Below, piece after piece: positions 18,252-18,484 of a DNA stretch of 38,438 nt (the first letter of the stretch is position 1; each line of letters begins with the position of its first letter). Origin of the DNA: a virus (Duplodnaviria > Heunggongvirae > Uroviricota > Caudoviricetes); IMG/VR virus record IMGVR_UViG_2648501437_000025; one strand, written 5' to 3'. The position numbers were made by a program, and so were the translations under genes. The notes beneath the pieces were generated by a model that worked only from the letters and a program-made list of their open reading frames with translations, was not told the DNA's origin and ran no database searches.

Positions 18252-18326
18252 TGGAGCGAGCAGCGGGAATCGAACCCGCATCATCAGCTTGGAAGGCTGA
18301 GGTAATAGCCATTATACGATACCCGC
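18252..18326 (-). tRNA. tRNA-Gly (anticodon TCC)
   Basis: Hand-folded cloverleaf: acceptor GCGGGTA/TGCTCGC, anticodon stem TCAGC/GCTGA with loop CTTCCAA, T-arm GCGGG-TTCGATT-CCCGC, encoded CCA; nearly identical to E. coli glyT as I remember it. Confidence 0.85.
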
Positions 18327-18332
18327 ATATGA

Positions 18333-18405
18333 TGCCGGTTACCGGAATCGAACTGGTGACCTACTGATTACAAGTCAGTTGCTCTGCCTGCTGAGCTAAA
18401 CCGGC
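18333..18405 (-). tRNA. tRNA-Thr (anticodon TGT)
   Basis: Perfect 7-bp acceptor stem GCCGGTT/AACCGGC, anticodon stem ACTGA/TCAGT with loop CTTGTAA, T-loop TTCGATT (one mismatch in the T-stem); CCA not encoded. Confidence 0.8.
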
Positions 18406-18407
18406 AA

Positions 18408-18484
18408 TGGACCGTCACCGGGGACTCGAACCCCGCGCCATCAACTTCGAAGGCTGATGCTCTATCCGGATGAGCTAGTGACGG
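18408..18484 (-). tRNA. tRNA-Arg (anticodon TCG)
   Basis: Acceptor CCGTCAC/GTGACGG, D-arm GCTC...GAGC, anticodon stem TCAGC/GTTGA with loop CTTCGAA, T-arm CGGGG-TTCGAGT-CCCCG, encoded CCA. Confidence 0.8.

Follow-up and report, generated by a model that had tools for sequence, protein, structure and literature searches.

Why does a prophage carry transfer RNA (tRNA) genes between the gene for its late antiterminator and its lysis genes? The question is raised by IMG/VR virus record IMGVR_UViG_2648501437_000025, a stretch of 38,438 bases that was analysed whole (the window, to which all window coordinates below refer), in which genes for tRNA-Arg, tRNA-Thr and tRNA-Gly stand together at 18252-18484. 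The window is an Escherichia coli prophage of the Rac family, with intR, recE, recT and trkG by PHROG assignment, and it matches a prophage of strain N1420 at 97.6% identity over 79% of 24 kb. The array is a member, in a rare composition, of an already known type of cassette. On balance, we lean towards reading it as an accessory cassette of tRNA genes, placed in the late leader of a prophage that belongs to the Rac family and has a phage-21-type late region; the cassette would give a modest supply of scarce decoders. The gene identities, their order and their homologies are established here, whereas we infer how the genes are transcribed and processed and that they bring a benefit.

Identity and descent of the three tRNA genes

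Across the window, ARAGORN called three tRNA genes and no more, each on the minus strand, and the Rfam model RF00005 (gathering score 29) recovered the same three independently at 55.6-69.9 bits. The E-values, 1.7e-9 to 2e-13 over the whole window, are far past chance. The initial annotation had proposed a cluster of Arg-TCG, Thr-TGT and Gly-TCC at 18252-18484; its coordinates and anticodons were right, and its folds are borne out by both finders. It gave no strand; the array lies on the minus strand, together with the Q-like and lysis genes. Few RefSeq genomes have the three genes, and there they already carry tRNA annotation. In the order of transcription, Arg to Thr to Gly (18484..18252), the genes are:

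18408..18484, minus strand: tRNA-Arg(UCG), called by ARAGORN, Rfam 55.6 bits, argN family, CCA encoded
18331-18406 as called by ARAGORN, 18330..18405 with the 3' UCA, minus strand: tRNA-Thr(UGU), Rfam 69.9 bits, a thrU-derived copy
18252..18326, minus strand: tRNA-Gly(UCC), called by ARAGORN, Rfam 61.0 bits, a glyT-derived copy, CCA encoded

The genes are tightly packed, with two bases between the Arg CCA and position +1 of Thr and six between the Thr discriminator and position +1 of Gly. The Thr gene proper runs from 18405 to 18333 and is followed by TCA (UCA in the RNA, 18332..18330) in place of CCA. All three anticodon loops have seven bases, U33 and a purine at position 37 (Arg CUUCGAA, Thr CUUGUAA, Gly CUUCCAA), and all three T loops are of the GTTCGA type (Arg TTCGAGT, Thr TTCGATT, Gly TTCGATT). 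Judged by the E. coli rules for aminoacylation, taken from general knowledge and read off the sequences, the identity elements appear intact in Thr (G1-C72, C2-G71, G35, U36), in Gly (G1-C72, C2-G71, G3-C70, U73, C35, C36) and in Arg (A20, C35, G36), where the discriminator U73 is unlike that of the host. The Arg acceptor stem is Watson-Crick paired throughout. We are close to certain that the three features are real tRNA genes.

The Arg gene is 87% identical to the argN of Stx2 phages over 77 of 77 bases. In phage F349, argN also has the anticodon tcg and lies in an ileZ-argN-argO array between Q and stx2. An argN-like sequence occurs in 2,150 of 5,426 complete E. coli genomes (about 40%), and the variant of the window, at 99% identity or more, in only four of the 5,426. 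The Thr gene is 91% identical to K-12 thrU and the Gly gene 95% identical to K-12 glyT, with identical anticodon and T arms in both cases. Both copies depart from the host genes in the acceptor stem, and the Thr copy in the D loop as well. Strain A30, which has the same array, matched at another chromosomal place as well, and this is presumably the thrU-glyT locus of the strain.

Several differences from these relatives are compensated. In the Thr acceptor stem, A5-U68 has become G5-C68 and C6-G67 has become U6-A67, and Z1323CEC0011 has the G-U intermediates; in Arg, C4-G69 of argN has become U4-A69. Compensation of the stem changes argues for continued selection on folding.

The late region and the expected route of transcription

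The genes around the array share its strand and follow in the order NinB-like gene, YbcO gene, Q-like gene, promoter-like site, terminator, tRNAs, holin, lysozyme and Rz. The array thus lies between the Q antiterminator gene (19268..18732) and the start of the holin gene at 17571, on one strand throughout. The placement given in the initial annotation, between a tR'-like terminator and the lysis genes, agrees with this arrangement: the terminator 18642..18612 comes before the tRNAs, and an S21 holin, a lysozyme and Rz come after them. The features of this region are:

18732..19268, minus strand: Q-like late antiterminator gene (DUF1133 family), 178 amino acids from an ATG at residue 41 of the listed open reading frame
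18696..18724, minus strand: candidate late promoter (pR'-like), TTGCAA, 17-base spacer, extended -10 element TGcTTTAAT
18612..18642, minus strand: tR'-like intrinsic terminator with a GC stem, a U7 tail and a flanking A-tract, about 50 bases past the promoter
18485..18611, minus strand: 127-base leader that travels with the Arg gene, with no strong promoter
17985..18251, minus strand: conserved non-coding trailer of 267 bases, which holds a hairpin at 18126..18043
17956..17984 (17984..17966 in the terminator scan), minus strand: second intrinsic terminator on the late strand, 7-bp stem and T8 tail
16398..17571, minus strand: phage-21-type lysis cassette, with holin, endolysin and spanin families by Pfam and PHROG
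17571..17356, minus strand: S21-like pinholin with an MKSM dual start, Pfam Phage_holin_2_1 "P21 holin S", 1.3e-34
17356..16859, minus strand: lysozyme, Pfam Phage_lysozyme, 1.3e-45
16874..16398, minus strand: Rz spanin, Pfam Phage_lysis, 3.7e-53

The Q-like protein matches Pfam PF06576 at 1.8e-101, PF06530 (Phage_antitermQ) at 1.1e-6 and PHROG 753, "anti-termination protein Q-like", at 1.6e-76. None of the proteins of the Q region could be named with NCBIfam; Pfam and PHROGs supplied the names. The candidate promoter begins eight bases after the end of the Q-like gene at 18732. In a weighted sigma-70-like scan it has the top score of the interval 18200-18820 (7.97, within the top 0.02% of window positions and spacers), and its -10/TG block is kept in an alignment with the relatives of the same Q type, ATCC 8739 and 683R6. 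From this we infer that 18696..18724 may play a pR'-like role.

The stretch of 96 bases with the first terminator, 18700..18605, folds at -34.5 kcal/mol (z = -3.8), and none of 200 shuffled sequences was equally stable. SE11, ATCC 8739 and 683R6 have a homologous hairpin. A simple terminator scan missed it, probably since the A-tract pairs with the U-tail. A short RNA of about 18689..18613 is predicted on the minus strand between the promoter and this terminator, and a weak, sub-threshold Rfam match to IsrK, a small RNA of the Salmonella Gifsy-1 prophage, coincides with it (18614-18687, 19.8 bits, E = 0.14). A permissive Rfam search near the array gave sub-threshold matches only (IsrK, CyaR and microRNA models on hairpins).

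The leader between the terminator and the Arg gene is identical or nearly so in A30, SE11 and Z1323CEC0011, although their Q genes differ. It has no convincing promoter at 18485-18611: the consensus scan found none, and the best score of the weighted scan was 4.17 (top 0.28%). An internal promoter for the tRNAs was considered and rejected as the main explanation of their expression; the conserved TATTAT/TATAAT motif lacks a -35 partner. Q-dependent late expression is the best inference because no good promoter was found between the terminator and the tRNAs, and we regard it as likely.

The trailer is about 87% conserved in ATCC 8739 and 683R6, while the leader there is unrelated. Its hairpin, 18126..18043, has a folding energy of -42.7 kcal/mol (z = -6.9) when read on the minus strand and of -21.1 kcal/mol on the plus strand, is rich in G-U pairs and is kept in the divergent copy of SerU-LTIIb; it may be an RNase III site or a small RNA. 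A reading frame of 49 codons in the trailer (18158..18009) was rejected as a gene: it has no PHROG match and no third-position bias (differences 7/4/8 and 7/9/7). The second terminator is kept in A30, SE11 and ATCC 8739. Between it and the holin there are terminator-like hairpins with T-runs on the plus strand at 17842-17878 and 17912-17936, of which the latter folds at z = -3.9. Neither a gene (PHROG) nor an RNA family (Rfam) could be assigned to the plus-strand hairpins of 17842-17936.

The following course of events would fit this layout. Upon induction, Q would modify RNA polymerase at the promoter just past its own gene. The modified polymerase would pass the terminator at 18642..18612, so that Arg-Thr-Gly would be the first part of the late transcript, and transcription would go on through the structured trailer and the second terminator to the holin, endolysin, spanin and structural genes. 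RNase P and 3' exonucleases would free the three tightly packed tRNAs; the Thr species, with its UCA end, would need extra 3' trimming and the host CCA-adding enzyme. The products would be added decoders for ACA, GGA and CGA/CGG. Along with amplification of the prophage genome, this would raise the supply of these decoders in the late burst of protein synthesis, for codons that are two to three times as frequent in the prophage as in the host.

Arg(UCG) is outside the core tRNA set of E. coli, in which CGA is read only by inefficient I:A wobble, and the host thrU and glyT are single-gene tRNA species of low abundance. Arg(UCG) would therefore add a Watson-Crick reader of CGA, and the Thr and Gly genes would duplicate thrU and glyT. 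Whether the cassette brings a real supply benefit we judge to be evenly balanced. Any such benefit is likely to be small and to depend on conditions, since close relatives can do without the cassette and often have it in a state of decay.

Relatives, codon usage and alternative explanations

The layout of Q, tRNAs and then lysis genes (or stx) is found in A30, ATCC 8739, 683R6, PhiR47_1, SerU-LTIIb, Stx2a_F349 and Z1323CEC0011, and it recurs over many unrelated lambdoid backgrounds and genera. The Thr-Gly pair of the window matches the 683R6, SerU-LTIIb and PhiR47_1 arrays at 88-90% identity. In Z1323CEC0011, the block 18624..18252, from the terminator U-tract to the 3' end of Gly, is 98.7% identical; there it follows a different antiterminator gene and precedes a different holin. 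The boundaries of this recombination module at 18624 and 18252 are sharp, and SE11 has the upstream one too. Behind different Q genes, the 3' half of the terminator, its U-tract and the following GCGGGTTTTTTTATGCC are identical, and the hairpin loop and 5' flank differ.

The intact Arg-Thr-Gly composition was found in four of 5,426 complete E. coli genomes, and its exact Arg-Thr junction had no match in 185,579 species representatives and none in IMG/VR. A degenerate probe for the junction found three genomes and more than 120 IMG/VR prophage contigs, in which the anticodon of the second slot is almost always different. ARAGORN, run on 40 of the IMG/VR loci, gave arrays that are almost all Met(CAU)-Lys(UUU)-Thr-Gly, and across all contigs found with the probe the "Lys" gene in the second slot is a homologue of the Arg gene of the window. 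The second-slot tRNA (L015-L134; L006 4157-4233) mostly has UUU with an unusual C33 (loop CCUUUAA); some copies have UCU, and in a few the anticodon loop is unreadable. An apparent anticodon shift was also seen in SerU-LTIIb, where an "Arg(UCU)" gene (L005 5292-5367, minus strand) has the body of the prophage Thr(UGU) gene, carries G35C and a single substitution in each of the anticodon and D stems, and lacks A20. The argO gene of Stx phages aligns to the Thr position as well. Taken together, the cassette is optional, modular and often remodelled or lost. In the related arrays, Thr is an exact copy of the host thrU in 97 of 122 cases and Gly an exact copy of glyT in 71 of 97; exact host copies in most related arrays fit a dosage role.

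The initial annotation had called CGA, ACA and GGA infrequent in E. coli, which holds in a reference of 42 K-12 genes (14,748 codons), where they occur at 2.6, 5.4 and 6.0 per thousand and CGG at 3.5. The prophage genes (8,465 codons) use all four more often, by Fisher tests with p from 1e-4 to 3e-16:

ACA: 16.3 per thousand, enriched 3.0-fold, rank 4 of 61
CGG: 8.6 per thousand, enriched 2.45-fold, rank 5 of 61
CGA: 6.4 per thousand, enriched 2.4-fold, rank 6 of 61
GGA: 13.5 per thousand, enriched 2.2-fold, rank 8 of 61

By absolute excess, ACA ranks 2nd, GGA 7th and CGA 22nd among the 61 codons, and the observed sum of excesses is matched by 1.8% of random codon triples. The suggestion that the tRNAs boost the translation of late genes therefore stands in part: the enrichment against the host is present (2.2-3.0 times), but it is not specific to late genes, being equal in early ones. 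The major head and scaffold genes (5770-7002 and 7008-7817, minus strand; 677 codons) keep 10 ACA and 12 GGA codons, with one AGA and no AGG or AUA. This retention points in the opposite direction to the controls of the codon test described below. Use of ACA in the two genes is higher than in the abundant structural genes of lambda (p = 0.02); use of GGA is not.

A number of observations weigh against a supply role, and the first group concerns codon usage. Besides the equal enrichment in early and late prophage genes, there is the case of lambda: it is without tRNA genes, and its early genes reach the same or higher values, its late genes lower ones. The enrichment is marginal among codons ending in A, since 30 of 364 such (NNA) triples match the observed sum. 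The most over-represented rare codons, AGG, AGA and AUA, have no tRNA in the cassette, and the major head and scaffold genes use hardly any CGA or CGG. In a matched test on the 10 kb downstream of Q in prophages of the same Q family, with scripted calls of reading frames and loci that are not independent, 16 carriers of Thr-Gly did not exceed 19 tRNA-less prophages in the share of ACA among Thr codons (0.225 vs 0.250), of GGA among Gly codons (0.177 vs 0.202) or of CGA among Arg codons (0.082 vs 0.094). The codon-compensation argument thus passes the simple test and fails the matched one, because array-less relatives have the same usage.

The second group concerns loss and decay. Among the IMG/VR loci of the same Q family, 39 of the 72 informative ones have no tRNA after Q; the other 33 (about 46%) have nine compositions, none of which is Arg(UCG)-Thr-Gly. 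Prophages of the SE11 type have a deletion derivative that joins the 5' half of Arg to the 3' half of Gly, with loss of Thr. The fusion point is the anticodon-stem sequence TCAGCCTTC, which is common to Arg and Gly; the chimera (locus L002, about 4366-4441, minus strand) is not called by ARAGORN and occurs in three complete genomes. ATCC 8739 has Thr-Gly only, with a degenerate tRNA-like remnant in place of Arg. In that remnant (L003, about 4516-4595, minus strand) the acceptor stem can still pair and the T loop reads TTCGATA, but the D arm is broken and the anticodon loop is odd; ARAGORN does not call it. In the window itself, Thr is the sole gene of the three without an encoded CCA, and A30 has the same UCA; the 3' CCA is encoded in all chromosomal tRNA genes of E. 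coli. Gly differs from glyT by C6U and C69U, which make two G-U pairs in the acceptor stem. Both features of the window are signs of relaxed selection. With respect to transcription, the tRNAs are separated from the holin by the second terminator and by some 400 bases with other elements, and the proposed dependence on Q is read from consensus matches.

Many of these observations are also what would be expected of a largely neutral passenger, that is, of copies of thrU, glyT and argN shuffled by recombination at the lambdoid hot spot between Q and S and decaying without meaningful benefit. The array-less majority in the same Q family, the like codon usage with and without arrays, the decay products (the SE11 chimera, the ATCC 8739 remnant and the unreadable second-slot loops), the UCA end of Thr and the G-U pairs of Gly, and the rarity of Arg-Thr-Gly, with no exact junction in species representatives or IMG/VR, all favour it. 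A passenger would not, however, be expected to show stem changes that are compensated rather than random, as in Thr and Arg, together with untouched anticodon and T arms. The three genes are also far over the Rfam threshold, and the layout recurs in many unrelated lambdoid backgrounds and genera. We consider a largely neutral array unlikely.

Another explanation is that the cassette is a counter-defence module, replacing or buffering host tRNAs cut by defence nucleases, chiefly by P2 Old acting on tRNA-Thr(UGU). P2 Old classically excludes lambdoid phages, and Thr(UGU) is the commonest member of the lambdoid late-leader arrays examined. P2-OLD kills by cutting the host tRNA-ThrU(UGU), and only a phage tRNA-Thr(UGU) gives rescue; the nuclease also cuts other tRNAs, Arg species among them, whose anticodon stem has a CNG motif (PMC12445682). 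The patchy, modular spread of the arrays in a known hot spot for accessory genes, with no tie to codon usage, would suit such a role, as would a second slot that alternates among UCG, UCU and UUU (C33), since Lys(UUU) is the target of PARIS and PrrC (PMC11464382).

The anticodon arm of the Thr gene speaks against this explanation. For resistance, the CNG motif has to be altered and the anticodon stem shortened as well; over-expressed host ThrU gives little or no protection (PMC12445682). In the window, the arm (ACUGA-CUUGUAA-UCAGU) is that of the host thrU: the UGU anticodon is shared with the rescue tRNAs, the CNG motif (CUG/CAG in ACUGA/UCAGU) is unaltered and the five-pair stem is not shortened. 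Evasion of P2-OLD by mutation of the anticodon arm was rejected on this ground, and the gene is unlike the P2-OLD-resistant tRNAs that have been published. Of the 121 full-length Thr copies from IMG/VR (122 recovered, one cut short), at least 119 also keep the thrU arm. We found no published nuclease that targets Gly(UCC), and the PARIS paper makes no mention of Thr, Gly or Arg tRNAs. Moreover, Q-dependent tRNAs would come late, after an early trigger of the Gam type. A counter-defence role for this array is accordingly doubtful, and we rate it as improbable.

The same idea can be put more generally: the lambdoid late-leader arrays might be fast-evolving conflict cassettes that outlast or decoy tRNA nucleases, and not a codon aid. 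This too seems improbable to us, if anything slightly more so. If it were true, the Arg-Thr-Gly of the window would be one state of an arms race and anticodon remoulding its evolutionary mode, seen in the Thr body with UCU of SerU-LTIIb and in the varied anticodons of the second slot.

It is least probable, in our opinion, that the tRNAs are expressed in the lysogen, by a leaky terminator or a weak internal promoter, for the benefit of the host or of morons such as trkG, with lysis kept off. Two intrinsic terminators bracket the tRNAs, and read-through of the first would therefore stop before the holin; a TATTAT/TATAAT motif at 18525..18520 is kept between the window and the otherwise diverged leader of ATCC 8739; and trkG is rich in ACA (10) and GGA (13) among its 492 codons. 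The leader, however, has no good -35 element (best score within the top 0.28-0.38%, none by the simple scan), and the codon in which trkG is richest, AUA (17 codons), is outside the range of the cassette. A boost for moron genes expressed in the lysogen, which the initial annotation had also suggested, conflicts with the strictly Q-dependent expression that the same annotation assumed. Finally, replacement of a host tRNA gene disrupted by integration, as in tRNA-dependent lysogeny (PMC10865867), was rejected, the array being internal and about 19 kb from the integrase gene (37203-38438) of a Rac-type prophage with intR, whose attachment site is outside the window, and the host copy being presumably retained, as in A30.

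We therefore return to the late-leader supply cassette as the reading that we prefer. Late-leader arrays at this position, after Q and ahead of the late genes, have been familiar from the work on phage 21 and the Stx phages onward, and a further one alone adds little. The useful outcome is a negative one, namely that the codon-compensation argument fails against array-less relatives. Together with tRNA-Thr(UGU) as the target of P2 Old, the failed codon test makes the common arrays suitable for a comparison of supply with counter-defence.

Apart from the array, the prophage has other accessory elements:

36704-36882, minus strand: RalA antitoxin small RNA, 212.5 bits
21707-21856, minus strand: sok antitoxin RNA beside a hok-type locus, 99.9 bits
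20662-21156, minus strand: Doc/Fic-like toxin gene, by Pfam and PHROG

Comparison with known systems

The tRNA-Thr that rescues phages from P2-OLD (PMC12445682) has the UGU anticodon, as does the Thr gene of the window, whose carrier is a phage from the group excluded by P2 Old. The rescue tRNAs have an altered CNG motif and a shortened anticodon stem, whereas the window gene has the thrU arm unchanged. The nearest host counterpart is the thrU-tyrU-glyT-thrT operon, whose Thr and Gly genes are 91% and 95% like those of the window, with identical anticodon and T arms. The window lacks tyrU and the spacers of the operon, its genes stand in a late leader and not upstream of tufB, and the CCA of Thr has become UCA.

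Transfer RNA genes just past Q, with Thr(UGU) among them, have been described in SfI, Sf6, ST64T, PS3 and phage 21 (PMC3636060). For phage 21, this is a statement of the SfI authors, who cite Guo, Kainz and Roberts 1991 (PMC3636060). A bias towards ACA against the host was also reported for SfI, 17.3% vs 7.1% (PMC3636060). Arrays of the SfI type have Thr(UGU) right after Q, as in the window, and the window has phage-21-type lysis genes. The partner of Thr is Asn(GUU) in SfI; in the window the partners are Arg(UCG) and Gly(UCC).

The ileZ-argN-argO array of Stx2a_F349 and phages 2851 and 1717 has the same position and strand as that of the window, between Q and the genes of the late promoter. 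Both are compact sets of three tRNAs for codons rare in the host, and argN is 87% identical to the Arg gene of the window, with UCG in both. The partners differ, being Thr(UGU) and Gly(UCC) in the window and ileZ(CAU) and argO(UCU) in the Stx phages. In the window no toxin gene follows, and the Q type and lysis cassette are different (DUF1133 Q, S21 holin). The tRNA arrays of Stx phages are usually explained by codon compensation (PMC7946995).

The Thr-Gly and Met(CAU)-Lys(UUU)-Thr-Gly arrays of the Rac-like prophage of ATCC 8739, vB_EcoS-683R6, PhiR47_1 and more than 100 IMG/VR contigs share a homologous Thr-Gly core with the window. These E. coli prophage arrays have the same Thr-Gly spacing and the same place after Q. 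The second slot has UCG in the window and UUU with C33 or UCU in the others, the window has no first Met(CAU) gene, and its Thr and Gly genes diverge more from the host genes than is usual for the related arrays. Over 235 bases, the three genes of the window are 89% identical to the Lys-Thr-Gly part of the four-gene arrays.

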